From Candidatus Zipacnadia bacterium (lineage in GTDB: Bacteria; Armatimonadota; Zipacnadia; Zipacnadales; Zipacnadaceae), in NCBI GenBank assembly GCA_029821415.1, contig JALGTJ010000007.1, forward strand, positions 1 through 27,651: a stretch of 27,651 bases of DNA. The letters are read 5' to 3'. Position numbers and translations under genes: made by a program. Positions 2,361 through 23,864 of the stretch are shown here, piece after piece (the stretch's first letter is position 1; each line of letters starts with the position of its first letter). The notes beneath the pieces were generated by a model, which saw only the letters and a list, made by a program, of their open reading frames with translations, had not been told where the DNA came from and did not search any database.

Positions 2361-3512
2361 CTACTTCTTCATCGCTTCCTTAAGCAAACGATTGGCGATG
2401 ACCAATCGCTGGATCTCGGAGGTGCCCTCTACGATGTCAAATAGCTTAGCCTCGCGGTAGTAGCGCTCCACCGGATAGTCCTTGGTATACCCGTAGCCAC
2501 CGTGAATCTGCACAGCCTTGTTGCAGACCTCCACGCACGTCTCCGAGGCGAAGACCTTGGCCATAGCCGCCTCTTTTTCAAACTCCAATCCTTGGTCTTT
2601 GCGCCAGGCGGCATGATAAGTGAGCCAGCGGGCCGCTTCAATACGGGTGGCCATATCCGCCAGCGTAAATTGAATTGCCTGGAACTCGCTAATTGGCTGC
2701 CCAAACTGCTCCCGGGTAGGCGCATAGGCAACCGCTGCATCATAAGCCGCCTGAGCCAGGCCGACTGCACCGATGGCCATACCGATGCGCCCGGCCCCCA
2801 GCGTGCTCATTGCTACCCGAAAGCCGCGTCGCTCGCGGCCCAGCACGTTCTCCTTGGGCACACGGGCATCTTGGAAGATTAGCTCCCGGTTAGCCAGGGC
2901 GGGATAGGCCATCTTCTCTTCATCCTTGCCAAAAGTGAATCCCTCCGTGCCCTTTTCCACGATGAAAGCTGTGATCCCCCGTGCTCCTTTCTCCGGCGCA
3001 ACGTTGGCAATGATTACGTATATATCCGCCTCACCACCGTTGGTAATGAACACCTTGGTTCCGTTCAGGACGTAGTAGTCACCATCCAGCTCGGCGCGGG
3101 TGCGGACACTGGCGGCATCGGAACCCGCCCCCGGCTCAGTCAAACCAAAGGCACCGATCTTCTCTCCACTAGCCAGTGGCCGCAGGTACTTCTCCTTCTG
3201 CTCTTCGCTGCCAAACTCCATAATAGGATACTCTGCCAGCAAATGAGCGCCATACACCGCACCGGTTGTGGTGCAAGCTGCCGAAAGCAACTCGCCAATG
3301 ACCGCCCAGTCCAGGATTCCGAGGCCCAGCCCGCCATATTCTGCCGGCACTGGCACCCCGAACAGATCCAGCTCGGCCAGCATCTTTATATTTTCCCAGG
3401 GATACTCCCCTCGCTCATCAACTTCCTTGGCTCTAGGCTTGAGCTCCTCATCACAGATTTCTCTGACTGCTGCGAAGATCTCCTGCTGCTCTTCAGTGAA
3501 TGAGAAGTCCAT
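2361..3512 (-). CDS. Acyl-CoA dehydrogenase (short-chain, Bcd/CarC-like)
   Basis: [70 protein letters not shown] (catalytic Glu motif); 383 aa. Confidence 0.96.
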
Positions 3513-3552
3513 CTCGTTCCTCCCGGACGTGGTTAGTCACAGCGTATACTAT

Positions 3553-4563
3553 CTATGCTGGAGTAAAGCGCGGCAACGTCCAACGAACCACGGCAGCCCC
3601 CAGGGTAAAGCCGGCGCCAAATCCCACGAACAGCACAACATCACCCGGCGACAGCTTGCCTCTGCGGTACGTGTCATCCAAACACATCGGCACTGACGCC
3701 GCCGAAGTATTGCCATACTTATCCACGGTGCTGACTACCCTGTCGGGGTCTATTTCCAGGCGGGCTGCCGCCGCATCGAGTATCCGCCGGTTGGCCTGAT
3801 GCATAATCACCGCCGAGACATCTGCCGGCCCCAGACCAGCCTTGTCTAAAGCCTCCCGCGCGATTCTGGGAATGCCCCGCACTGCCAGCTTAAATATCTC
3901 AGGACCTTCCATCTGGAGACAGTCTTGGCTTTGGGCAATCTGTTCGGACGCAATGCGCAGCCGTGAACCACCTGCCGGCAAAATCAACAAATCGCCATAC
4001 TCGCCGTGCGAGCTAAGCGCAAACGATAACAGCCCCTCGCCGCGTCCACAGGGCCCCATTACTGCCGCCCCTGCCCCATCGCCAAACAGCACACACGTAG
4101 CGCGGTCCTTCCAATCGGCAATCCGGGTGAGCACCTCAGCGCTGATCAACAGCACATAGTCATAATCGCCACTACGCACAAAGTTAGCGCCAGCGGCCAT
4201 AGCGTAAATAAAGCCAGTACAACCACTGCTTATATCCATAGCGCCGGCATTTTTTGCTCCAATTGCGTTCTGGACAAGGCAGGCAGTGGCCGGGAAAAAA
4301 TGGTCAGGAGTGACGGTAGCCAGTACAATTAGCCCGATCTGTTCCGGACTAACGCCGGCGTCATCAAGAGCACGCTGGGCAGCTCGGATAGCCAGGTCCG
4401 AGGAGGCTTGGTCATCGGCTGCCAGATGCCGCTCGCTTATGCCGGTATGCCGGATGATCCATTCGTCAGTGGTGTCAACCATGCGCTCCCAGTCAGCATT
4501 GGTCAGAACAGTCTCTGGTAGATACGAGCCTACCCCGCAGATTGTTGCACCACGCAAAGACAT
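3553..4563 (-). CDS. fabH: 3-oxoacyl-ACP synthase III
   Basis: GVGSYLPE, catalytic triad motifs SGCTGF (Cys), MHQANRRI (His), YGNTSAASVP (Asn); FGDGAGA; GFGAGFT. Confidence 0.97.
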   Translation of the reverse strand: MSLRGATICGVGSYLPETVLTNADWERMVDTTDEWIIRHTGISERHLAADDQASSDLAIRAAQRALDDAGVSPEQIGLIVLATVTPDHFFPATACLVQNAIGAKNAGAMDISSGCTGFIYAMAAGANFVRSGDYDYVLLISAEVLTRIADWKDRATCVLFGDGAGAAVMGPCGRGEGLLSFALSSHGEYGDLLILPAGGSRLRIASEQIAQSQDCLQMEGPEIFKLAVRGIPRIAREALDKAGLGPADVSAVIMHQANRRILDAAAARLEIDPDRVVSTVDKYGNTSAASVPMCLDDTYRRGKLSPGDVVLFVGFGAGFTLGAAVVRWTLPRFTPA

Positions 4564-4617
4564 ACTCTATCTCTCTCTTAGGCAGGAAGATTGAAAACCG
4601 CAACCGGAGATCCGCAT

Positions 4618-5619
4618 TCAGTTTGCGTTGACCGCCAGTTGTTGACAGGCCTGCTCAAGGTGCTTGACAACTCCACCTTCTACAGCGCGCTGGGCCACCT
4701 CAATCGCACTGGCGATTGCTCGACTGTCGGACCGACCATGACTGACAACGACAATACCCCGGACTCCCAACAGTAGAGCGCCGCCGTAGCTGGCGTAATC
4801 GTAGCGCCGGTGCAGGCTACCCAACTTGCTGGTCATCAGAAACTCGGCGAGCTTACCGTTCAAGGCATCACGCAAACAGTTGTCCAAATCGTCCATCACG
4901 AAATGGGCCATCGCTTCGGCAGTCTTGAGAGCCACATTTCCTGCAAAGCCGTCAGCCACTGTGACATCGACCTGGCCATTGAAGATGCCGTCAGCTTCGA
5001 TGTTGCCGACAAAATTGATGGGCATCGCGGTGAGCATGTCAAACGCCTTGCGCGTGAGGCTGTTGCCCTTTGATGGCTCTGAGCCGATGCTGAGTAAACC
5101 AACTCTGGGTTCCCGGATGTCCAAGGCGTACTCTGCATAGATACTGCCCATCAGCCCAAACTGGGCCAGATGAATCGGTTGGCAGTCAGCATTGGCCCCG
5201 GCATCAATAATTATTCCCGGACCACGTCGTGATATCACAGGCGCAGCAATACCCGCACGACGCAGGCCCTCAATGACACCCACCCGCGCATGAGCCAAAG
5301 CCAGCAACGCCCCGGAATTGCCAGCCGAGACCACGGCCTGCGCCTCTTGATTCCGCACCATATCAACAGCCACAAACAGAGAACTTTCCGGTCGCCGCAG
5401 TGCCCCAGTTGGTTCGGCGTCCATTGCAATGACGTCGCTAGCCGCCACAATTCGGAGGTTAGAGGGCCGTTGAGCCGAATCGGGCAAGTGTTTTTCGATT
5501 TCCTCCGACCGGCCCACCAGAGCAATTTGCACCGGTAGCTGCTTCGCGCCCCGTAGAGCACCTTTGACTATTGCCTGCGGTGCGAAATCTCCACCCATAG
5601 TGTCAACAGCAATAACCAT
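4618..5619 (-). CDS. plsX: Phosphate acyltransferase PlsX
   Basis: IAVDTMGGDFAP, VSAGNSGA, DAGANAD, FVGNIE, VADGFAGNVALKTAE, GGALLLGVRG, SHGRS; located between rpmF and fabH. Confidence 0.97.
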   Translation of the reverse strand: MVIAVDTMGGDFAPQAIVKGALRGAKQLPVQIALVGRSEEIEKHLPDSAQRPSNLRIVAASDVIAMDAEPTGALRRPESSLFVAVDMVRNQEAQAVVSAGNSGALLALAHARVGVIEGLRRAGIAAPVISRRGPGIIIDAGANADCQPIHLAQFGLMGSIYAEYALDIREPRVGLLSIGSEPSKGNSLTRKAFDMLTAMPINFVGNIEADGIFNGQVDVTVADGFAGNVALKTAEAMAHFVMDDLDNCLRDALNGKLAEFLMTSKLGSLHRRYDYASYGGALLLGVRGIVVVSHGRSDSRAIASAIEVAQRAVEGGVVKHLEQACQQLAVNAN

Positions 5620-5651
5620 AAGCTCTCCCAGCCATTCACTATACAGCCCGC

Positions 5652-5849
5652 TTAGTGACGCTCCTCTTCCAGTTCGACGGTGTGATCCACTTTCTCACCC
5701 TGGTAGTAGCCACACTTGTGGCAGGCATTGTGGGGAAGGATCATTGCCCCACAGTTGGAGCATTTCACCAATTCCGGCATGCTCAATCCCTGGTGAGTGC
5801 GCCGCTTGTTGCGCCGTGACCTGGAGGTCCTTCTCTTCGGTACAGCCAT
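5652..5849 (-). CDS. rpmF: 50S ribosomal protein L32 (Zn-binding form)
   Basis: MAVPKRRTSRSRRNKRR...CSNCG...PHNACHKCGYYQG. Confidence 0.97.
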   Translation of the reverse strand: MAVPKRRTSRSRRNKRRTHQGLSMPELVKCSNCGAMILPHNACHKCGYYQGEKVDHTVELEEERH

Positions 5850-6108
5850 ATCATGTCAACTCCAGCTATCAACTAACCTGCGTGGGCATCTTCCCACGCA
5901 GGCATAAGATGATCAAAAGATATACTGCACACTGCAGGTAGTAACACCAGCAGTGGCATCTCACCCGAAGAGCCCCTGCTGGTGTTGGCAATCACGTTTG
6001 CGCTCACTGCAATACTGTCCGCACACTCACGTCCTACCCAGCACTTAGAGCAATGAAGCCCCCGCTGGACTGAGTTCGGTATGTCCCCTCGTTTGCCTCC
6101 AAGATGCA
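5850..6108 (-). ncRNA. Candidate structured 5' leader or ncRNA upstream of rpmF (no known family recognised)
   Basis: Follows a consensus promoter. Contains an 11-bp perfect stem AACACCAGCAG/CTGCTGGTGTT (5943-5986), a 10-bp stem (5877-5902) and further imperfect pairings (ACTCA..GTCC/GGAC..TGAGT). Confidence 0.4.
5877..5902 (-). terminator. Perfect 10-bp hairpin just upstream of rpmF (terminator- or attenuator-like, weak U-tract)
   Basis: Minus strand CCTGCGTGGG-AAGATG-CCCACGCAGG followed by TTAGTTG. Confidence 0.45.
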
Positions 6109-6114
6109 TAGCTA

Positions 6115-6143
6115 AGTATAGCCCGTTAGGGGGTTATTGTCAA
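6115..6143 (-). promoter_or_regulatory. Sigma70-type promoter for the rpmF-plsX-fabH unit
   Basis: Minus strand TTGACA (6143-6138), exactly 17 nt, TATACT (6120-6115). Confidence 0.85.
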
Positions 6144-6183
6144 GAATTCATCCAGATCCTGGGCTCGCCAGGGCAGCACTCGC

Positions 6184-7993
6184 TCACCAATCTGCCAGGG
6201 AAGTCTCATTGTCCTGATAACTTATCGTGTGCAGCAGCATATGCTTGTACTCAAGCTCAGACTTACTTTTGGGCTTGTGTTCAGTCAGGACAGCCTTGAA
6301 TGGATCAGTAGGCTCAGTCACCAGTTCCTTGGCATGCTCAATGCTCTGCCGGAGCCGGGCGCGGGCAAAGTCAGCAGCAAAGGCCGCCAACGATTCGAAG
6401 CTGCTGGCCGGCACTACTTTCACCACTACTCCGGCCCGGAGATTGTTTAGTGGTTGGCGCAGCCGATAGGTACGCTTGCGGGCATAGACTGTCAACTGCA
6501 GTTCGGCGTCATCGCCCGGACCAGTCCACTCCAGAACTGCCGGCTTAGGCCCCGAGGTAACATCTTTACCCTCTACCGGCCCGGCTCGCAGAACCCGTAT
6601 TCCCACATAGCACCCGGCCCTCTGAATTGCGATCGTGCCCATCGCCGGTATTGCAGTCGGCAGTCCGTTCCATTCCTCGCGGCTCACAATCACTCGGTCT
6701 ATCTGCGCACGCGGGCCCAGCACTCCGCGCAGCCAGGCGGTCAGGCGGTTGCCACGCCCAATTAAGTCAAAGTCAACCGTGACCATACCCACATTCTTGA
6801 CCTGCATACTGGTGACATAGCTGGGCCGCGGTTCAGCGAAAAAGTATGCGGTCGGCAGTTCCGGCAATCCGGCCAGAGTAACCAACAGAGGTATACTTGT
6901 CGCGCTGGGCTGGCCAGTCATAGTGCCCAGGCTAAAGCGGTCGTGCATATATGTGTCCGTGCGGACGATATATGCTCCCTCCCGCGCCTCAGTTGATAGT
7001 TGAAACGGCAATTGCCGGCGCACCCCTGCCAGCAGGCCAGCAGGAGGCACGTAGTCGGGAGCAACAAAGAACATAGCAAACTGCGTCACGTGAGAAGGCG
7101 CCGGCCCACCTAAATCAACATAGATAAGGTACGGGCTGTACTCCCCGCCATACAAACAGTCTGCCGGCCTGGCGTATAGTGCAGCTCCAGCCAACGCACC
7201 CGATTCGGGCTGGACACGACCGGCCAGGTCGTAATACATTAGCATCAGCGCATCCTGAAGCTGCTGGCTGTGCATCTGAGCATCAGCGGCCTGCCAGATC
7301 CATTTCAGGGCCGCCAGTCGGTAGCTGTCTGAGGCGGGGCTGTGTCCATCTCCGAGACCCTTGTCAAGCGTCTTGCGTCTTCGCCCACCAACTTGCGACC
7401 TGTTTCAGGCTTTCTGCGATCTGCTGGTCAGCGCCCAGCGCGCGGCCCAGCATCGCCAAGCTGGCTACACGCAGCAAACCGGTGACCTCGTCTTCCGAAG
7501 GAGCCGGCTTATCTCTGACTGCCGCAAGTGCCAGCCCCAGCCCGCTGTACAGTTCCTCTTGCAGCTCCGGCGCGAGCTTCTGGTAAATCTGAGCGAGTAC
7601 CGGGCTGGCAAAATAAGTAGCCTGCAGGCTGGGAGTCTGCCCCTGGCCAGCGAACCAAGGGAACTCTCCTCGCCTGGCCGAGCCCGGCTGAGTATCCTGG
7701 GCAGCCAGAATCGCTCTGAGCACCTGCTGGGCTTGTTCAATGTTGGTGTCGCTCTCACAGGCTGCCAGAACATAACCCGGGCTCTCCGTCGCCACGGTGG
7801 GGCGGCCCACCTGATCTATCACCAAGCCGGTGGCTTCATCAATTTGTGCTTTGCATTCATCAGACGAGGTGAGCCAGCTTACCAGGTTGCCATATCGTTG
7901 GTCGCGTTGGTCGGCCTGCGCAGTGCTCATACCTGCCAGCACACAAACTACCAACACTAAACGCCCAATTGGGCAATCAGAAAGCCAGGCCAC
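6184..7993 (-). pseudogene. Frameshifted gene for a putative secreted protein (~600 aa when repaired), seen as ORFs 7364-7993 and 6184-7275
   Basis: Signal-peptide-like N-terminus (RLVLVVCVLAGMSTAQA-DQ) with AAGGAG RBS. Deleting one copy of the 7-bp tandem repeat at 7368-7381 joins the two ORFs in frame (...WWAKTLDKGLGDGHSPASDSYRLAALKWIWQAADAQMHSQQ...), giving (1810-7)/3 = 601 codons. Confidence 0.8.
7368..7381 (+). repeat. Exact 7-bp tandem duplication GCGTCTT-GCGTCTT at the frameshift point
   Basis: Plus strand ...CAAGCGTCTTGCGTCTTCGCCC...; minus strand GCG-AAGACGC-AAGACGC-TTGAC. Confidence 0.95.
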
Positions 7994-8045
7994 AGCCCAT
8001 CACTCCTTCGCTCAGATCGCGCTGTAACCGTTCGCATCAAGGCGC

Positions 8046-8072
8046 AGAAAGCCGCCGAGTTCGTCTCGGCGG
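8046..8072 (-). terminator. Rho-independent terminator after rpsI
   Basis: Minus strand CCGCCGAG-ACGAA-CTCGGCGG then CTTTCT, about 80 nt after the rpsI stop. Confidence 0.65.
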
Positions 8073-8149
8073 TTCCACCAGTGTACTGCGTGCTGTCATC
8101 CTGTGGCGATGATCCCACAGACAGTACCACACTCGTGGCAGTCCCAAGC

Positions 8150-8545
8150 TTAGCGTTTGGAGAACTGCTTGGCGCGACGCGCTTTGCGAAATCCGGCATG
8201 CTTGCGCTCCTTGACGCGGGCATCACGGGTCAGCAGGCCCTCCTGGCTGAGGACAGTACGAAACTCCTCGTTCTCCTTTACCAGAGCCTTGGCAATCCCG
8301 TGGCGCAGTGCACCAGCCTGGCCCACAATGCCGCCACCGAGAACCTTGGCCTCCACATCGTACTGCCCAACGGTATCAGTGACCCGAAAAGGCTCCTGAA
8401 CCATCTGGATCAGGGAGTAGCGATGCAAATACTCCTCCGCCGGCCTGCCGTTAACAATGATCGTGCCACTGCCTGGCTGCAGCCACACCTTGGCAACAGC
8501 ATCTTTACGCTTGCCTGTACCATAATCAGCTTGTGCTTCGGCCAA
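8150..8545 (-). CDS. rpsI: 30S ribosomal protein S9
   Basis: [58 protein letters not shown] start at 8545 chosen from the GGAGG RBS; the track uses ATG 8569. Confidence 0.97.
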
Positions 8546-8590
8546 TCTTGCCTGCCTCCTTGAGCCCATAACGGAAAATGGAATTCAGTG

Positions 8591-9037
8591 TCAAATTTCT
8601 GCCAACTCCAGCGGCTGAGGCTGCTGAGCCTGGTGGGGATGGTCAGGACCAACATAGACTTTCAGCTTCCGGCCCATCTTACGCCCCAGCGGGTTGTGGG
8701 GCAGCATGCCCAGTATTGCCCGCCGTACTATTTCCTCCGGGGAGCGTCCCATGAGCTGCTCAGCCGTCTCTACCTTCAAGCCGCCCGGAAAGCTCGAGTG
8801 GCGGTAATATTTCTTGTTCGCCAGCTTATTACCGGTAAGAACTATCTTCTCGGCATCTGTGATAATCACGAAGTCGCCAGTGTCAACATGCCGAGTATAT
8901 TCCGGCTTGTGCTTGCCCATAAGAATACGAGCAACACGAGAGGCCAGTCGGCCTAGCCGCTGCCCAGCAGCACTGATGACCCACCAGTCTTGTTGCACTT
9001 CATCTTGTTTCATTGAGTTAGTCTTCAAGTTGCCCAT
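8591..9037 (-). CDS. rplM: 50S ribosomal protein L13
   Basis: LGRLASRVARILMGKHKPEYTRHVDTGDFVII, GMLPHNPLGR, LKVYVGPDHPHQAQQP. Confidence 0.98.
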   Translation of the reverse strand: MGNLKTNSMKQDEVQQDWWVISAAGQRLGRLASRVARILMGKHKPEYTRHVDTGDFVIITDAEKIVLTGNKLANKKYYRHSSFPGGLKVETAEQLMGRSPEEIVRRAILGMLPHNPLGRKMGRKLKVYVGPDHPHQAQQPQPLELAEI

Positions 9038-9115
9038 ATTACACTGCCCTTTCGTCGCTCAATCACTCGCGCGAGAAAGCCAACACTAACGGGCTGTACC
9101 AACCGGTCACATCTG

Positions 9116-9862
9116 CTAGTAACTCACCTTTACCAACCACAGTCCACAGCCCGGCGCCGTCGGACCCGCCCGCGCACGATCTCGGCTGGCTAGAATCTCA
9201 GCCACTGCTAACGGCTCCCAGCGTCCCCGCCCGACTTCCACCAACGTTCCTGCGATAATACGTACCATCTTATACAAAAAGCCATCGGCCTGCACATAGA
9301 CCCTCACCATCTCATCGTCTTGACTGACCTCAAGCCGGTCAATAAGACGCACCATATCTGTTACCGAACCGCCCGCGGCGCAAAAAGCGCTAAAGTCATG
9401 CCGACCCAACAGTGTCCGCGCCGCCTGTCCCATCGCCCTGACATCCAGTGGTTCGGCGATATGCCAGGCGTAGCGCCCTATGAATGGCGAGCTGGTCCGC
9501 CGATTAAGAATCTGGTAACAGTACAGCTTGCGCCGGGCGTCATAGCGCGCATCAAACTCCAATTCCACTTCCCGCGCCTCCACCACACCGACCGCGACCG
9601 GTAGCCGCTCGTCCACCGCCCTGGCCAAGTTGCTGACTGGGATAGGGCTGGGACTTTCAAAGGTCACGACCTGGCCCAGGGCATGAACTCCAGCGTCAGT
9701 GCGACTGGCCCCCCGAATGGTGACCGGATGCCCAAGCACCGCCACCAATGCCTGCTGCAGCTCGCCTTGGATCGTCTTCGCGTTAGGCTGAATCTGAAAT
9801 CCGGCATAGTCACTGCCATCATACTGGACGGTCAGCATCAGCTTACGCATCGCTGTCATCAA
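9116..9862 (-). CDS. truA: tRNA pseudouridine(38-40) synthase TruA
   Basis: YDGSDYAGFQIQ, GASRTDAGVHALGQV, HDFSAF, GFLYKMVRIIAGTL, AGPTAPGCGLWL. Confidence 0.97.
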   Translation of the reverse strand: MMTAMRKLMLTVQYDGSDYAGFQIQPNAKTIQGELQQALVAVLGHPVTIRGASRTDAGVHALGQVVTFESPSPIPVSNLARAVDERLPVAVGVVEAREVELEFDARYDARRKLYCYQILNRRTSSPFIGRYAWHIAEPLDVRAMGQAARTLLGRHDFSAFCAAGGSVTDMVRLIDRLEVSQDDEMVRVYVQADGFLYKMVRIIAGTLVEVGRGRWEPLAVAEILASRDRARAGPTAPGCGLWLVKVSY

Positions 9863-9892
9863 GCCGGACTCGGAAGCGTGACGAAACTATAC

Positions 9893-10246
9893 TTATTCGA
9901 CCAGTTCAAGGATAGCCATTTCGGCTTGATCCCCGCGGCGCTGGCCGGCACGAATGATACGCGTATAGCCACCGGGGCGCTCAGTGTAGCGCGGCGCGAT
10001 TTGCGTGAACAGGTAATCGACCAAATCCTGATCGTTGATCAATCGCAACACCTGGCGGCGAGCCGCCAGATCACCACGCTTGGCCTTGGTAATAATCTTT
10101 TCGGCTATCGGGGCAGCCTGTTTGGCCTTTACTACTGTAGTCTTTATGCGATTGTGACGCAGCAAGGCATCAACCACTCCCCGTAGTAGAGCCTTGCGCT
10201 GATCACTCGGTCTTCCCAGTTGTTTCCCAGCTTTGCGATGTCGCAT
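9893..10246 (-). CDS. rplQ: 50S ribosomal protein L17
   Basis: MRHRKAGKQLGR...IKTTVVKAK...RPGGYTRII...RRGDQAEMAILELV; start at MRHR (10246). Confidence 0.98.
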   Translation of the reverse strand: MRHRKAGKQLGRPSDQRKALLRGVVDALLRHNRIKTTVVKAKQAAPIAEKIITKAKRGDLAARRQVLRLINDQDLVDYLFTQIAPRYTERPGGYTRIIRAGQRRGDQAEMAILELVE

Positions 10247-10288
10247 TATGTTAACCTCGTAGAGAGTGCTTCCGCGGGTCACCACCCG

Positions 10289-11281
10289 CTATTCGTCCTG
10301 CTCATCCTGATCGGGTTGCGCCAACGAAAGCCCAAACTTGGCCAGCTTCTCGATAACTTGCTCCAGCGAACGTTCGCCGAAATTACCAATTCCCAACAGA
10401 TCCTTCTCTGTATGCGCCACCAGCTCACCGATTGTCTGGATGTTTGACTTCTTCAAACAGTTGAGCGCACGGACGGTCAGATCCAACTCCTCAATGGGCA
10501 GGGCCAGTGTCTTGTCATAGACTTCCGCCTCGGCCTCCTCCAGCTTGGCTTCCGCCTCCTCTTTAGGTACTGCAGCAAAGACGGCCAGATACTCCTGGAC
10601 AATGGCAGCAGCCTGCCGCAGCGCCTCATCAGGCATAACCGTCCCGTCCCCCCATAGCTCCAGAGTCAGCCGGTCCAGGTCGGTACGACCCCCGATGCGT
10701 GTAGGCTCAACATGGTAAGCAACGCGAGGAATCGGTGAGAAAAGCGCATCCACCGGAATGACGTCAATCGGCGTGCTTTGTCGGTCACGCGCCTCCACTG
10801 GTAGGTAACCCTTACCTTCCCTAACCCACATCTCCATATACAGCTTACCATCTTCCTCAGTTATGTCCGCTATGTGTAAATCCGGGTTGACCACTTCCAA
10901 CTCCGGCGGACACTGCACATGTGCCCCGGTTACCTCCTGGGGACCGGTCGCCTCGATAGTTAACTTGTAGCTTGCCTCCTCATCAGCCTCAAGCTGCGGC
11001 CTTACGCCATTGGCCCACCTAATCACCAGCTCTTTGATATTCAATATTAGTTCGGTACTGTCTTCAGCAAGACCGGGAATGGTGCTAAACTCGTGACGTA
11101 CACCTTCGATCCTAATATCAGTAACGGTCAGGCCAGGTAAGTGAGCCAACAGCACTCGTCGAAAAGCATTACCCAAAGTGTGACCGAAACCCCGCTCCAG
11201 CGGCTCTATCGAAAAACGACCGTACTTTTCGTCAAGTTCAAGTATGACAATCTCAGGCTTGACCCCTGCAAGCATATTCAC
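10289..11281 (-). CDS. rpoA: RNA polymerase alpha subunit
   Basis: GRFSIEPLERGFGHTLGNAFRRVLL, HEFSTIPG, VDALFSPI, ELDLTVRALNCLK. Confidence 0.98.
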   Translation of the reverse strand: MNMLAGVKPEIVILELDEKYGRFSIEPLERGFGHTLGNAFRRVLLAHLPGLTVTDIRIEGVRHEFSTIPGLAEDSTELILNIKELVIRWANGVRPQLEADEEASYKLTIEATGPQEVTGAHVQCPPELEVVNPDLHIADITEEDGKLYMEMWVREGKGYLPVEARDRQSTPIDVIPVDALFSPIPRVAYHVEPTRIGGRTDLDRLTLELWGDGTVMPDEALRQAAAIVQEYLAVFAAVPKEEAEAKLEEAEAEVYDKTLALPIEELDLTVRALNCLKKSNIQTIGELVAHTEKDLLGIGNFGERSLEQVIEKLAKFGLSLAQPDQDEQDE

Positions 11282-11367
11282 GACTCCTCACTTGTCGTAT
11301 TCAGCTTCCGCTCAGTTCCTTGTAACAGACGACTGATCACCAAAGCCCTTGGCCACCAGCCGGTCAA

Positions 11368-11997
11368 CTATCGTGAGTAGAACTCCATGACTAACTGTTC
11401 GTCAACGTCCAGGCGAATCTCGTCTCGCTCGGGCAGGCCGAGAATGTCTACAACACGCTCTTCCCGATCTACTTGTAGCCAGCTCAGGCTCTCGCCGGAG
11501 GTGCTAGCCAGGGCTTCCTCAATAGGCTGAAGGTTCTTACTGCCGTTCCTTGCCTCTATACGGTTGCCAACTTTTACCAAATATGAGGGGATATTGACCA
11601 CTTGCCCATCCACCGCGAAATGACGGTGGTTCACCATCTGTCGAGCTTGCGCACGACTGCTGGCCAAGCCGGCTCGATAGATGACGTTGTCCAAGCGTCG
11701 CTCCAGCAGTTGTAGCAGATTGTTTCCGCTGATTCCCGGCATGTTCTCGGCATCACGAACGTAACGCCGAAACTGTTCTTCACTGACGCCATAGATATGG
11801 CGCAGTTTCTGTTTTTCGCGGAGCTGCTTGCTGTAATCACTGACTCGATACCGCCGTGAGCCCTGGCCCCGGTGCCCAGGAGGATAACTCTTACGCTCCA
11901 TAGCACACTTAGGACCATAACAGCGCTGCCCCTTAAGAAATAACTTCTGGCCGGCCCGACGACACAGCCTGCAAACAGGACCGTGTTGCTGGCTCAT
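11368..11997 (-). CDS. rpsD: 30S ribosomal protein S4 (Zn-binding form)
   Basis: CRLCRRAGQKLFLKGQRC...KC, QLREKQK, LLERRLDNVIYR, ARQMVNH, EQLVMEFYSR; ATG 11997 follows GGAGGTGA. Confidence 0.98.
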   Translation of the reverse strand: MSQQHGPVCRLCRRAGQKLFLKGQRCYGPKCAMERKSYPPGHRGQGSRRYRVSDYSKQLREKQKLRHIYGVSEEQFRRYVRDAENMPGISGNNLLQLLERRLDNVIYRAGLASSRAQARQMVNHRHFAVDGQVVNIPSYLVKVGNRIEARNGSKNLQPIEEALASTSGESLSWLQVDREERVVDILGLPERDEIRLDVDEQLVMEFYSR

Positions 11998-12090
11998 TAA
12001 CAACGTTCACCTCCGAATGACAACCTGCCAATCGACAGTTCATCAGCTCTTACGCTCTCAGTTTTTCTTGCATAACACAATCGCAAAGGC

Positions 12091-12483
12091 CTACACCCGG
12101 CGCCGTTTCTTAGGCCGGCATCCGTTGTGGGGGACAGGGGTAACATCCTTGATCTCGCCGATATCAATACCAGCCGCCTGCAGCGCCCGAATGGCAGTCT
12201 CGCGACCCGAACCGGGCCCCTTGGTGAAAACGTCCACCTTGGACATACCAAACTCCTTAGCCTGACGCGCAACGCTCTCCGCGGCCAACTGAGCGGCAAA
12301 GCTAGTGCCTTTTTTTGTCCCGGTGAAGCCAATTGTGCCACCACTAGCCCAGCACAGCGTATTACCTGCAGGATCAGTGATAGTTACAATAGTATTGTTG
12401 TATGTTGATTTGATGCACGCCCGCCCGTAAGGTACTCGTTTGGTGATCTTGCGGCGGCGCGAACTTGTTTGATTGCGACGCAT
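12091..12483 (-). CDS. rpsK: 30S ribosomal protein S11
   Basis: [42 protein letters not shown]. Confidence 0.98.
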
Positions 12484-12531
12484 TGCTCTGCCTCCGTTAA
12501 TAGCTCAACCGGCGAACCCGTGTACCTGACA

Positions 12532-12915
12532 CTATTTAGGTCCTGGTGCCCGCTTCCGACCCGCCACGGTCTTCTTACGCCCCTTGCGAGTGCGGGCATT
12601 GGTCTTAGTCCGCTGTCCCCGAACAGGTAGCCCACGGCGGTGGCGGATGCCGCGGTAGGAGCCAATTTCCATTAACCGCTGGATATGAGCGTGCACCTCG
12701 CGGCGCTTTTTACCTTCGATCGTGTAGTCACGGTCAATGATCTCACGCAGCCGGGCTGCATCTTCTTCACTAAGCTCGTACATTCGGGTGCCAGCGTCAA
12801 TTCCTGCCTTTGCCACTATGGCTTCGGCACTGCTCCGCCCGATACCATAGATATAGGTCAAGGCAATATGGACTGGTTTGTCTCGGGGCAAGTCAACTCC
12901 CGCTATTCTGGGCAC
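12532..12915 (-). CDS. rpsM: 30S ribosomal protein S13
   Basis: [44 protein letters not shown]. Confidence 0.98.
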
Positions 12916-12933
12916 TGTCCATTCCTCCCTGAG

Positions 12934-13047
12934 TTATCCCTGGCGCTGCTTGTGGCGGGGGTTGGAACAAATCACATAGACCCGCCCCCGTCGGCGCACG
13001 ATTTTGCACTTGTCACAACGCTTTTTCACTGAAGCTTGAACCTTCAC
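12934..13047 (-). CDS. rpmJ: 50S ribosomal protein L36 (Zn-binding form)
   Basis: Too short for the ORF track. Manual translation from GTG 13047: [37 protein letters not shown], with GGAGG RBS. Confidence 0.97.
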
Positions 13048-13085
13048 AACAATATCCTCCTCATTATCTGAGACCGGTTACCAAC

Positions 13086-13107
13086 CTTGCCCTCTGTGGA
13101 GGGCAAG
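13086..13107. other. 9-bp perfect inverted repeat between infA and rpmJ (possible mRNA hairpin or weak terminator)
   Basis: CTTGCCCTC-TGTG-GAGGGCAAG; no clear U-tract on the coding strand. Confidence 0.4.
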
Positions 13108-13126
13108 TGGCCCCGAGAAGCATTGG

Positions 13127-13360
13127 TCACTTGTGCAGCCAAGTAATGCGTGCTCGCGTCACATCATACGGCGACAGCTCCACCGTAACCTTATCACCCG
13201 GCAAGATACGAATATAGTTGCTGCGCATCTTGCCGGATAGATGGGCGAGTACCTCGTGCCCATTTTCCAGTTCTACATTGAACTGGGCATTGGGCAATTT
13301 ATCTACTACTCGCCCTATCACGCGAATTTTTTTGTCACGCTTTCCAGTATCCTGAGACAT
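13127..13360 (-). CDS. infA: Translation initiation factor IF-1
   Basis: [45 protein letters not shown]; overlaps the map 3' end by 26 nt. Confidence 0.97.
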
Positions 13361-14162
13361 CCGATAGCAACTTAGCCCCTTCTGCCAGAGTCAAAATTAG
13401 CGGCTCCGAGTCGGTTACCACTACATCATGTTCAAAGTGTGCCGACAGCTCACCGTCGGCTGTGCGCACCGTCCAACCATCCTCTTTATCCACCTGGACC
13501 TGTGCTGTTCCCACATTGACCATCGGTTCGATGGCCAAGACCATTCCCGGCTGCAAAACCAGCTCGTAATCCTCAAACGCTCCTGGACTGTAGAAATTCG
13601 GGATCTGCGGCGGCTCATGCAACTGCTGGCCGATCCCATGTCCTGTCAACTGCCGAACTACGCTATAGCCACGGCTCTCTACATACTCCTGGATAGCCTT
13701 AGAGATCTGCTTCAGCCTATTGCCCGCCCGAGCTTGCGCTATACCTGCCATCAGCGCCCCTTGCGTAGCGTCAAGCAGTCCATGATACTCACCTGGCTGG
13801 CCGACGACAGTAGTGAAGGCGGCGTCGCCATGGTAACCATCGTAGCAGGCCCCCAGGTCAACGCCCACCACTTGCCCCACCTCCAGTACAGTGTCATCAG
13901 GAATTCCATGGACCACCACATCATCAATCTGAATACAGGTCGCCGCAGGATAACCCTGGTATCCCTTAAATGAGGGCAGCGCTCCCCGAGCTCGGATGTG
14001 GGCCTCCGCCAATTTGTCAAGTTCCAATGTAGTCACGCCGGGCGCAATCTGCGCGCGTACCAATTCCAGCGTCTCTCCAACAATCTGCCCAGCAACTTTG
14101 AGCTTCTCCAGCTCCTCTTCTGAGCGCCGCGCCACACGCCGACTGCCGGCTCTCTTAGCCAC
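13335..14162 (-). CDS. map: Methionine aminopeptidase type I
   Basis: [46 protein letters not shown]. Confidence 0.97.
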
Positions 14163-16688: not shown

Positions 16689-16785
16689 ATTTACTCGCTT
16701 TCCCTCCGTCTGTTTGTTGCCCAGCTCCCCACCAGCGTTTTCTCATCCGACCTCTGACAAATCTGATCGATCCGACTCGGAGAAC

Positions 16786-19508: not shown

Positions 19509-19877
19509 CTAAACCACCTCGGGCGCCAGAGATATGATCTTTACATGTTCCTTCGCCCGCAGTTCTTGGGCAACGGGACCAAATACGCGGGTACACAATG
19601 GGTTGCCATTCTCATCTACGATTACCGCAGCATTGTCATCGAATCGCACCTGAGTCCCGTCAGGGCGTACTACGCTCTGGCGGCAACGTACTACCACTGC
19701 CCGGACGATATCGCCCTTGTGCACCGGACTTTGCGGGGTAACCTGCTTGGCCGAAGCCACTATCAAGTCGCCTAACGACGCATATTTCCCCCCGCTGCGT
19801 CCAACTATGTTTATGCAGCCAATTTCCCGTACACCAGAGTTGTCAGCCACCCTCAGCCTGGTTTCTTTCTGAATCAT
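19509..19877 (-). CDS. rplN: 50S ribosomal protein L14
   Basis: MIQKETRLRVADNSG, FDDNAAVI, TRVFGPVA, IISLAPEVV; 122 aa from ATG 19877. Confidence 0.98.
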   Translation of the reverse strand: MIQKETRLRVADNSGVREIGCINIVGRSGGKYASLGDLIVASAKQVTPQSPVHKGDIVRAVVVRCRQSVVRPDGTQVRFDDNAAVIVDENGNPLCTRVFGPVAQELRAKEHVKIISLAPEVV

Positions 19878-19937
19878 CGTTACAGCCCTCTTGCGAACTT
19901 GATCGGACTTTCGGCTATTCACATAGTAATGCAGCAG

Positions 19938-22010
19938 TTAACTTCTCTCGCTCTCAGCGACGATGCGTTGCTCAATATCCGGTGGAACAGGTTGATAGTG
20001 AGCGAACTCCATAGTGTAACTGGCACGCCCCTGCGAGAGCGAACGCAGATCCGCCGCATAGGTGCGCATCTCGGCTACTGGAACTAATGCCTTGATCCTC
20101 TGCAGTCCCTTGCCCACAGCATCCATCCCCTGAATCTGACCGCGCCGGCTAGTAATATCACTCATTACATCGCCCATAATGTCCTCAGGCGTAGCCACTT
20201 CAACCGCAGCTACCGGCTCCAGCAGTTTTGACCCGGCTTCTTCCAGAGCCTTGCGCATCGCCAGTTGACCGGCCCTACGAAAAGCCATATCCGACGAGTC
20301 CACCGGGTGCGAACTACCATCATCCAGAGTGACCTGGACGTCAACTACTGGATAGCCAGCCAGTACGCCCGACTCCATTGCATCCTGCACACCCTTTTCA
20401 ACAGCAGGGATGTAGTTGGTGGGCACGGCGCCCCCCTTAATCTCATTGACAAACTTGAAGCCCTCGCCTCGGGGCAGCGGCTCTACCCGGATCCACACAT
20501 CGCCAAACTGCCCCCGGCCTCCGGTCTGTTTCTTATGGCGTCCCTGCACGCGCACCTTTCGAGTTACAGTTTCCCGGTAGGCAATCTGGGGCGGCTTGAG
20601 CGTGACATTGACATCAAACTCATTCTGCAGACGGGTAGTGATGATTTCAACGTGTAATTGTCCCATACCCCGAACAATCAGTTCTCCGGTCTCTCGGTCC
20701 CGCTCGTAGGCGAAACCGACATCTTCGTCAGACAACTGCGCCAATGCACCGGAAAGTTTATCCTGATCGGCACGCGAAGCGGCCTCCAGGGCTACCGCGT
20801 GCATACCACTCGGCAAAGGCGGACAGTCAAATATCACGCTTTCGCGGCCTTGGTAAAGTGTCGTTCCCGTCCGCACCTTTTCCAGCTTGTTGACACAGGC
20901 AATATCACCTGCTGCCACTGTCCCTGCCGAAACCGTTTCACGGCCCTGAACAAAAGCCAGACCACTGAGCTTGGCACTCTCACCGCTCTGTGCGTCGGTG
21001 ATGGGCGCGTCTGCCTGGCCTATCCCGGAGATGGTGCGCAGCAGGCTCAGCCGCCCGACGTATGGATCCAGGATCGTCTTAAATACCACTGCCGCGAATG
21101 GCTGATCCGCTGCCGGAGCTCGGACAATTTCTTCCCCATCTCCCGGCGCATGTCCGTGCCAGGGGCCTCGACTCACCGGCGAAGGCGCCAGTTCAACCAA
21201 TGTCTCGGCCAAACTGGCAACCCCGATTGCCCGGCGGGCATCAGTAGCAAGTACTGGCATAATCAGCCCTCGAGCAACGGCTTTCCGCAGGCCTTCGGCC
21301 AATTCTTCCGCAGTAAGCTCCCCTTCTTCCAGATACCTTATGGTCAACTCATCATCGGTAGTCGCCACCGCATCAACAAGTTGTTCGTAAGCTTGCTCTG
21401 CTGCCTCGCGTAACTCCTCAGGTATATCTCCCCGTTTGACCTCAGTGCCTTGGCCAGTAACCGCTTGCATAGTCAGCAGGTCCACCACGCCCTGGAACTG
21501 CCCTTCGCTGCCGATGGGAAGCTGAATCGGCACGACCTCCGGTCCGGTGAGGCTCTCTGCCAGACTCGCCACCGCACCGTCAAAGCTGGCGCGCTCCTTG
21601 TCTATCTTGTTTACGACGGCAATTACCGGTTGATTGCAATTCCGGGCTGTTTCGAAAACCTTGTAGGTGTGTACCTCCACTCCGGCATTAGCATCAATGA
21701 GTAACACACTACAATCTGCCACCCACAGTGAGGGCACCACCTCGGCAAAGAACTCAGCATAGCCAGGTGTGTCAATAAGATTTATCTTAGTGCCATTGTA
21801 TTCGCAGTAGCAGGCCGCCGGCGAAATGGAGATCTGACGGCTCTTCTCCTCCTCGCCAAAATCACAGGTAGTGGTGCCTTCTTCAACCTGACCCATACGG
21901 CTCTTCATGCCGGTGCTAAACAGCAGCGCCTCGGCCAAGGTGGTCTTACCGCAACCACGGTGGCCAACTATGGCCAGATTGCGAATGTGATCGCTATCGT
22001 ATTGTGGCAC
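19938..22010 (-). CDS. fusA2: Elongation factor G paralogue (EF-G2 / EF-G-like), 690 aa
   Basis: IRNLAIVGHRGCGKTT (G1), RQISI (G2), DTPGYAEF (G3), NKID (G4), KKQTGGRGQFGDV, GGAVPTNYIPAVEKG, HPVDSSDMAF, LLEPV, DLRSLSQGRASYTMEFAHY. Five-domain length with non-canonical G motifs; GGGAGG RBS before GTG. Confidence 0.95.
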   Translation of the reverse strand: MPQYDSDHIRNLAIVGHRGCGKTTLAEALLFSTGMKSRMGQVEEGTTTCDFGEEEKSRQISISPAACYCEYNGTKINLIDTPGYAEFFAEVVPSLWVADCSVLLIDANAGVEVHTYKVFETARNCNQPVIAVVNKIDKERASFDGAVASLAESLTGPEVVPIQLPIGSEGQFQGVVDLLTMQAVTGQGTEVKRGDIPEELREAAEQAYEQLVDAVATTDDELTIRYLEEGELTAEELAEGLRKAVARGLIMPVLATDARRAIGVASLAETLVELAPSPVSRGPWHGHAPGDGEEIVRAPAADQPFAAVVFKTILDPYVGRLSLLRTISGIGQADAPITDAQSGESAKLSGLAFVQGRETVSAGTVAAGDIACVNKLEKVRTGTTLYQGRESVIFDCPPLPSGMHAVALEAASRADQDKLSGALAQLSDEDVGFAYERDRETGELIVRGMGQLHVEIITTRLQNEFDVNVTLKPPQIAYRETVTRKVRVQGRHKKQTGGRGQFGDVWIRVEPLPRGEGFKFVNEIKGGAVPTNYIPAVEKGVQDAMESGVLAGYPVVDVQVTLDDGSSHPVDSSDMAFRRAGQLAMRKALEEAGSKLLEPVAAVEVATPEDIMGDVMSDITSRRGQIQGMDAVGKGLQRIKALVPVAEMRTYAADLRSLSQGRASYTMEFAHYQPVPPDIEQRIVAESERS

Positions 22011-22027: not shown

Positions 22028-22222
22028 TCATACATTTGCGCTTGGCTCATCACAGCTATTGTTCTCATCGTGCGCCTTCAGCTTTGTGCTCCGGAGCAGC
22101 ACCTTGCCATACAGAGGATGCCTGGTCCTTCGCTGGATCTCAACCACCACTGTCTTGTCCATCTTGTCACTGACCACCGTTGCCAGGGCCGTCCGCTTCT
22201 CGCCGCTGTGTGTTCTACTCAT
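22028..22222 (-). pseudogene. rpsQ: 30S ribosomal protein S17, C-terminally truncated (about 57 homologous residues plus 7 unrelated)
   Basis: [12 protein letters not shown]...HPLYGK...KAHDENNSC, then DEPSANV*; the conserved GDxVxIxExRPLSKxKxWxL half is absent. Confidence 0.85.
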
Positions 22223-22446: not shown

Positions 22447-22858
22447 CGTAGTCCCCTCGAGTAACAAACTTACACTTGATCGGCAGTTTGTGGGCAGCTC
22501 GCCGCATCGCCTCGCGAGCGGTCTCCTCGGGTACGCCGCCCATTTCAAACATTATCCGACCAGGCTTGACAACCGCTACATAATAAGCAACCGGTCCCTT
22601 GCCCTTCCCCATTCGTGTTTCGGCCGGCGTCTGAGTAATCGGCTTGTCAGGGAATATCCGAATCCACACCTTCCCTCCCCGGCGAGCCTCGCGGGCCATT
22701 GTCACACGAGCTGCCTCAATCTGCCGGGAATCAATCCAAGCCGGCTCCAGAGCCTGGAGGCCAAACTCGCCAAAATTCACAGTGTTGCCCCGATAAGCTA
22801 ATCCTCGCATCCGCCCTCGGTGCTGCTTAGCATGCTTTAGTCGCTTAGGCATCAACAT
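22430..22858 (-). CDS. rplP: 50S ribosomal protein L16
   Basis: [48 protein letters not shown]. Confidence 0.98.
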
Positions 22859-23864
22859 CTTCAGCTTCCTCCTCGACCGCATCTACCACTATAGCAGGCT
22901 GCGTCTCATCGCTATTGTCAACAGACTCTTCTTCCCCAACAGCTTCTACCGGCTCGGCTGCCTCAACTTCCGTTACTGCCAGCTCCGTTTCTGGTTCGGT
23001 CTCATCGTTAGCACTGTCAGGCTCATCTTCCTCAACAGCCCCCACCGGCTCTGCCGCAGACAACGGGGCCGTCTCAAGCTCTGCTACCTCAGGCTCCGCC
23101 TCTGGCGGAGCAGCCGACAGATCTTCTGCCGCTGCCCCAGCGGTTGGTTCTTCTTCCACCTGCTCCCCATGTTCAATTAGGGCCACCTCCTCTTCCAGCT
23201 CTTCCCAGACATCTCGCTTCTTTTCCTCCTTGGGGGGCAAGATGTCACCCTTATATACCCAGACCTTCACCCCAATGTTACCGTAAGCGGTTCGGGCTTG
23301 AGTGACGCCGAAATCAATGTCCGCCCGCAAGCTCTGCAGTGGAACCGGCCCTTCCGGCCCCATCTTCTCGCGCCGCGCAATTTCTGCCCCGCCTATCCTA
23401 CCAGCAATCTCACAACGTACCCCTCGGGCACCACACTCCAAAGCACGTTCCAGGGCCTGACCCATAGCTCGTCGTGGCGAGACACGCCGCTCGATCTGCC
23501 AGGCAATATTATCAGCCAGCAGTTGCGCACAAGTATCCGGTTGAGCCGTCTCCTCCACATTTACCCGCACCTTTGCCTTAACCATCTTCTGAAGTTGCTG
23601 GCGAAGCCGATCCACATCGCGCCCGCCCCGGCCGATCATAATCCCCGGTCTGGCAGCTTCAATGGTCACCGTTATGCTGTCAGCGGCTCGATCAATAATG
23701 ATATTGGAGATACCGGCATTGCGCTCTCTGTCGCGAATATACTTACGGAGCTTGATATCCTCAATCAGTTGCTGACGGTATTGAGCACCCTCGGCAAACC
23801 AGCGACTACGCGCCTTGCGTACACTGACCAGACGAAAACCGTATGGATGGACTTTTTGACCCAT
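22845..23864 (-). CDS. rpsC: 30S ribosomal protein S3 with ~128-aa acidic C-terminal extension
   Basis: [53 protein letters not shown], then an E/A/D/P/V-rich tail. Confidence 0.98.
22902..23096 (-). repeat. Degenerate tandem duplication (33 and 32 codons) within the S3 acidic tail
   Basis: [33 protein letters not shown] versus [32 protein letters not shown]; in DNA, GTCTCATCG recurs at 22903 and 22999 (period 96 nt) with similar downstream sequence. Confidence 0.8.

Follow-up and report, generated by a model that had tools for sequence, protein, structure and literature searches.

A 7-bp tandem duplication splitting a putative lyase gene in a Candidatus Zipacnadia genome is probably a joining error of the assembly

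Tandem repeats that shift the reading frame of genes for secreted or surface proteins are known from contingency loci, in which simple-sequence repeats mediate phase variation. Frame-shifting lesions are also known from local misassembly in metagenome-assembled genomes (MAGs) built from short reads: overlaps are duplicated and gaps are dropped, and the resulting lesions are private to the assembly, spread genome-wide, blind to reading frame and to gene essentiality, and located near contig ends. The locus described here shares with contingency loci a frame-shifting tandem repeat within the gene for a probably secreted protein, but differs from them in the lack of a multi-copy tract, in the lack of copy-number variation between strains, and in the presence of extra lesions. 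With local misassembly it shares all of the characteristics listed above, except that its own lesions lie 6-7.6 kb from the contig end, and not within the first few hundred bases. The window, i.e., the whole stretch of DNA that was analysed (27,651 bp), is the whole of contig C41, which is the longest contig of a MAG (G000; 326 contigs, 1.9 Mb, N50 of 7.1 kb, 67% complete) from the Armatimonadota, class Candidatus Zipacnadia (PMC10290634). Judging from assembled contigs, we put the probability that the 7-bp duplication arose technically, through a joining error (assembly or stitching) of this MAG, at roughly 87%; it would then be one of hundreds of such small errors in the draft genome. Although present in the record, the duplication almost certainly does not reflect the organism, in which the gene is most probably intact and encodes a protein of ~650 aa.

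On the forward strand, positions 7368-7381 read GCGTCTTGCGTCTT, which corresponds to AAGACGC-AAGACGC, an exact 7-bp tandem, on the coding (minus) strand (Table 1). As the original prediction had described, the duplication and a stop two codons downstream are both present in the deposited sequence: the upstream ORF (209 aa) terminates in ...WWAKTQDA followed by TGA, and the downstream frame is open on the minus strand from 7368 to 6184. When one copy of AAGACGC is removed in silico, the junction reads ...WWAKT-LDKGLGDGH..., which is the exact reading of the intact homologue P0003. For the single fused frame that had been proposed, the junction is hence confirmed, but the proposed length is not, as the intact protein has 650 aa instead of 600. 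By itself, a repeat of this kind carries no significance: with an order-2 Markov model, ~1.8 exact 7+7 tandem repeats are predicted for the window, and the 104 repeats observed in the genome (1.5 per 27.65 kb) compare to ~120 expected. A genome-wide excess of 7-mer tandem repeats was rejected on these counts, an excess being found for longer units only. It is the comparison with relatives because of which 7368-7381 is counted as an insertion.

Table 1. Coordinates of the split gene, its lesions and neighbours in the window, and of related lesions on other contigs of the MAG.
Feature	Position	Strand	Remark
rpsI (S9), conserved upstream neighbour	8150..8569	-	
Whole remnant of ~650-aa gene, three frames	6126..7993	-	
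N-terminal piece, signal-peptide-like start	7364-7993	-	
Junction of 12-bp in-frame deletion	7581..7582	-	TCCAACATGGTG missing, LQHGE>Q, no microhomology
Private synonymous substitution GCA>GCG (Ala)	7382	-	Directly 5' of duplication; L001 position 6624 is A, vs window
Exact 7-bp tandem duplication AAGACGC/AAGACGC	7368..7381	-	+7 frameshift, creates TGA at 7364-7366
Middle piece	6184-7368	-	
Junction of 80-bp deletion	6200..6201	-	Second frameshift; window reads ...NETSLADW and stop, TGA 6184-6186
True C-terminal tail ...WQIGERVLPWRAQDLDEFLTITP and stop	6126-6203	-	
rpmF (L32), conserved downstream neighbour	5652..5849	-	
rpsQ (S17)	22028-22222	-	Short, 64 aa; matches Pfam positions 2-45 of 68
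rplN (L14)	19509-19922	-	
murF lesion	C250:5564		
yidC lesion	C97:2824		
ligA lesion	C217:6342		
Imperfect 24/25 duplication	Contig C189		
41- and 37-bp duplications	C167:8400-8850		

P0003 is encoded by L001, a contig of a JGI metagenome (Ga0366834_1031934) that is 99.5-100% identical to window positions 3560-14049 (10.4 kb), with the gene order rplM-rpsI-X-rpmF-plsX-fabH in both. Three indels separate the window copy of the gene from that of L001: a 12-bp loss, the +7 duplication, and an 80-bp loss. Due to the last of these, at ~6200, the final ~49 residues are replaced by LADW and a stop, the true stop being the TAA at 6126-6128. The statement that the gene has no other lesion is therefore contradicted by the two losses, of 12 bp (~7581) and of 80 bp (~6200), and perfect reversibility is lost with it: the second frameshift (80 bp) persists after removal of one heptamer, so that reverting the duplication leaves a C-terminally truncated protein. 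Replication slippage between CCTGGCAG repeats was considered as a cause of the 80-bp deletion and rejected as a clean explanation, since these repeats are 81 bp apart and an in-frame loss would be expected, and since microhomology is lacking in 21/30 deletions of the MAG.

None of the three lesions occurs in L001 or in nine further loci (L005-L013) at any site covered; among these, L008 and L009 are near-identical to the window, as is L001, and seven (L005-L007, L010-L013) were grouped as more distant. In addition, Logan contigs of four independent runs (X1-X4) were compared over window positions 3500-12600. The seven letters at 7368 are left out in the contigs of X1, X2 and X4 (X3 is without a contig across the site), and contigs of the same three runs have T in place of C at 7382 relative to the window. 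CACCATGTTGGA is inserted behind 7581 in all four runs. At 6200, an X3 contig continues into the missing 80-bp segment, and the alignment of an X1 contig ends exactly at this position. The window alleles were reproduced by none of 18 runs (Logan contigs), and the best-matching run, with 0.87 of the sampled words, carries intact alleles. The runs that matched are metagenomes of hydrothermal-vent, marine and sediment origin; word depth was 3-9 in the runs examined. That the lesions are private to this contig, compared with ten loci and four runs, argues for an artefact, although, with the best run at 0.87, this reading is inferred and not seen in source reads.

The same comparison bears on two biological explanations that had been proposed for the duplication. 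A slipped-strand ON/OFF switch, in which the copy number of the heptamer would toggle the reading frame, would be in line with a tandem unit that is not a multiple of three within the gene for a probably secreted protein. However, two copies are found here and one everywhere else (10/10 other loci and 3/3 runs covering the site), a multi-unit tract exists in none of the relatives, 7+7 repeats occur at chance rate genome-wide, and the two other lesions would keep a reverted duplication from restoring the protein, which leaves phase variation with a practically negligible chance of being the correct explanation. The second proposal, a footprint left by an excised mobile element with a 7-bp target-site duplication, could account for the direct adjacency of two exact 7-bp copies. 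Loss of bacterial insertion sequences normally proceeds by precise excision, with removal of one target-site copy, or leaves larger scars. Moreover, an element at this site is present in 0/10 related loci and 0/4 runs, and the units of tandem duplications in G000 range from 7 to 78 bp and do not share one target-site length, which renders an excision footprint extremely improbable.

What sets the locus in context is that the lesions are of one class that extends over the whole MAG. Long ORFs of G007, a genome of the same genus (1.09 Mb sampled), were compared to G000, and 38/335 orthologues (11%) turned out to be frame-split in G000. On the DNA level, 283.5 kb of well-conserved orthologues contain 37 events of this class, i.e., ~1 per 7.7 kb. 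Thirty of them are deletions of 10-132 bp, with a microhomology of 0 bp in 21 and of 1-2 bp in 8; the other seven are tandem duplications of 7, 7, 23, 25, 37, 40 and 41 bp, six of them exact and one with 24/25 matches. Event lengths are a multiple of three in just 10/37 cases, near the proportion of one in three that would apply if there were no selection. Among the genes broken are murF, yidC, ligA, mfd (twice), pnp, lon, tkt (transketolase) and mutS2, and no viable cell could carry all of them in this state. Events are often paired at distances of 195-365 bp, a spacing into which the window pair 7383/7581 (198 bp) fits. In the reverse direction, a comparison on the DNA level left at most two such events in 268 kb of G007, the other apparent G007 events being mirrored lesions of G000. 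A naive reverse control, which had returned 15 splits in G007, was discarded: several of these are mirror images of G000 lesions (e.g., C12, C187, C217), which arise when parts of an ORF that are out of frame in G000 all match one frame of the G007 DNA.

An alignment-free count of exact tandem duplications with a unit of 19-78 bp gave 48 in G000 and 0 in 1.09 Mb of G007. Of these 48, 73% are located within 700 bp of a contig end, compared to 24% expected, with a sharp onset at ~250-300 bp. Contig ends are products of assembly, and a biological process can therefore not explain this bias. Taken with a nearly clean control genome and with a lesion class that is indifferent to reading frame and includes essential genes, the bias argues for an artefact. 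In a separate observation, the C-terminal two thirds of LigA are encoded twice, on C217:4803-6546 (85%) and on C287:1-1086 (84% identity to LigA of G007), which means that the G000 bin holds redundant or mixed-strain sequence.

Several features of the window itself fit this account less well. All three lesions are in one non-essential gene, and ~25 kb of ribosomal and other genes on the contig are clean; at 6.2-7.6 kb from the contig end, they are the most internal of their class. Private SNPs are also denser in the gene (8 in 1.95 kb) than on either side of it (4 in 8.5 kb). Three lesions and a raised SNP density in one accessory-looking gene, with clean essential flanks, could point to a real strain-specific pseudogene, in which relaxed selection would have permitted the 7-bp duplication and the 12-bp and 80-bp deletions; relaxed selection would predict the same clean-flank picture. 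The private SNPs with respect to X1-X4 and L001 further imply that the window represents a distinct lineage, and a split orthologue also occurs in G059, a member of the same family. Nevertheless, 6/8 of the SNPs in the gene are synonymous and give no sign of long-standing relaxation, the gene is conserved across the order (66/67 genomes), and the independent assemblies are free of all three lesions. As the identical lesion class runs through the whole MAG, where it disrupts murF, yidC and ligA and is concentrated near contig ends, this gene would have to be a special case. The very recent pseudogenisation that had been considered is thus unlikely, and an assembly error is the only one of the four options originally listed that the evidence supports.

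In the split orthologue of G059 (G059:C9:26662-28516, minus strand), the gene is present as two overlapping frames that correspond to residues 11-277 and 272-640. Within the window, three synonymous third-position differences to L001 and runs X1-X3 are located exactly 3 bp apart, at 6757, 6760 and 6763. X4 agrees with the window at these positions except for 6757, the sole position of difference that is common to X4 as well. These differences may reflect polymorphism among strains or recombination over a short patch.

A joining error of the MAG could have produced the lesions as follows: at low coverage, and in variable or thinly covered stretches, adjacent sequence pieces would be concatenated at a wrong offset. 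A true overlap that is left untrimmed would be written twice and appear as an exact tandem duplication (here, of 7 bp), whereas the missing bases of an unbridged gap would be dropped and leave a blunt deletion (here, of 12 and 80 bp). The gene at 6126-7993 would then consist of at least four pieces, joined at 7581, near 7375 and at 6200. The technical step involved might be end extension or scaffolding with pieces of ~200-700 bp. The private substitution at 7382, one base before the duplication, would fit an error close to the end of one of the joined pieces, and so would the 24/25 copy on C189. Being richer in SNPs than its ribosomal-protein neighbours, the gene would be a typical site for fragmentation of an assembly graph.

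It is very unlikely, by contrast, that the lesions are real and that a vent-associated Candidatus Zipacnadia strain carries, by the hundreds, blunt deletions without microhomology and short tandem duplications that are exact. If it were the case, they could stem from relic DNA or from error-prone repair by end joining in cells that are damaged or do not grow, and a lyase-like gene that is conserved across the order would be one casualty among them. Lesions of this kind are also found in L001, which lacks 56 bp of rpsK (S11) at ~1627 (corresponding to window positions 12367-12422) and 47 bp of fabH at ~10174 (window 3858-3904), bases that are present in the window and in X1-X4. With these losses, the lesion class is represented in another public assembly as well, and they show that such lesions arise technically in this type of data.

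As biology, the duplication is thus no switch, no footprint, and probably no pseudogene. If joining errors are the cause, about 11% of the conserved genes in this MAG are frame-split by them, and any flag for a pseudogene, split gene, frameshift or tandem duplication in this MAG is to be presumed artefactual pending reads. The same caution holds for L001 with its comparable deletions in rpsK and fabH. Other MAGs could be screened quickly for this class of error by two alignment-free signs: exact tandem duplications whose units measure 19-78 bp and are not divisible by three, and a pile-up of such duplications 250-700 bp from contig ends.

Regarding the gene itself, the downstream piece has 37 homologues, nearly all of them single proteins of ~650 aa without a Pfam domain. 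The gene is present in 34/34 high-quality genomes of the order and is one uninterrupted frame in almost all genomes that have it; that it is intact elsewhere across the order speaks for an artefact in the window. The possibility, raised along with the original prediction, that orthologues are consistently two separate genes does not apply, as they are single genes for ~650 aa in 66/67 genomes of the order. At the N-terminus, RLVLVVCVLAGMSTAQA-DQ resembles a signal peptide, and the protein is probably secreted, as far as this can be read from the sequence. For both halves, Pfam and NCBIfam returned no match at E<=1 apart from noise, and a sequence-profile search of the PDB returned no match. 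The ESM Atlas yielded unnamed clusters only, together with a faint heparinase lead; among the unnamed clusters matched by the intact protein are some from Verrucomicrobiota and Planctomycetota.

An AlphaFold model of P0003 (with 36 homologues; pLDDT 88.3, pTM 0.88) comprises a helical toroid in the N-terminal part (residues ~70-330) and an anti-parallel beta-sandwich in the C-terminal part. Of the top 23 Foldseek matches in the PDB, 22 are polysaccharide lyases of the toroid/beta-sandwich type, and the remaining one is human dermatan sulfate epimerase, which is structurally related. E-values go down to 2e-9 with a probability of 1.0 (4ok2, 8khw, 7bjt, 2fut, 3afl), and the matches include Alg17c (PL17), Atu3025 (PL15), heparinases II and III, glycosaminoglycan (GAG) lyases, and PL8. 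The product of the intact gene thus probably has a polysaccharide-lyase-like fold and may be regarded as a putative lyase on the basis of this model. The (alpha/alpha)-toroid with a beta-sandwich is common to the model and to described lyases (PL17 Alg17c, PL15 Atu3025, PL12/PL21 heparinases, PL8, PL33/35 GAG lyases). However, a family match on the sequence level is lacking, global TM-scores are only 0.3-0.45 at an identity of ~10%, and, unlike the genes of the named polysaccharide lyases, this gene has rpsI and rpmF as its neighbours throughout an entire order of Armatimonadota. The intact protein, encoded at this fixed position, defines an unnamed, order-wide family. H219, Y255, R261, Y281 and Y350, the latter as part of a T347-D-T-Y350 motif, are invariant or near-invariant; from this conservation, these residues and the motif are candidates for the active site.

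The rest of the contig is structurally sound. A gross misassembly was considered on account of two unusual arrangements and rejected. First, a full-length gene for EF-G (690 aa; 19938-22010, minus strand) lies inside the S10/spc cluster between rpsQ and rplN. Second, the interval from rplR to rplO (window 16689-16785) lacks rpsE (S5) and rpmD (L30). Both the placement of EF-G and the S5/L30 gap are collinear in G007 and G006 of the same genus, and S5 is encoded on C236; EF-G within the ribosomal cluster is therefore a lineage feature and not a misjoin. On C236, S5 is encoded alone (5879-6646, minus strand), by an ORF of 255 aa (271-aa open frame) that is much longer than a typical S5, next to an aldo/keto-reductase-like gene and, further upstream on the other side, a tsaD-like gene. 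Ribosomal protein S3 of the window (22845-23864, minus strand; 339 aa) contains KH and S3_C, which end at ~203, and continues into a C-terminal extension of ~135 aa.
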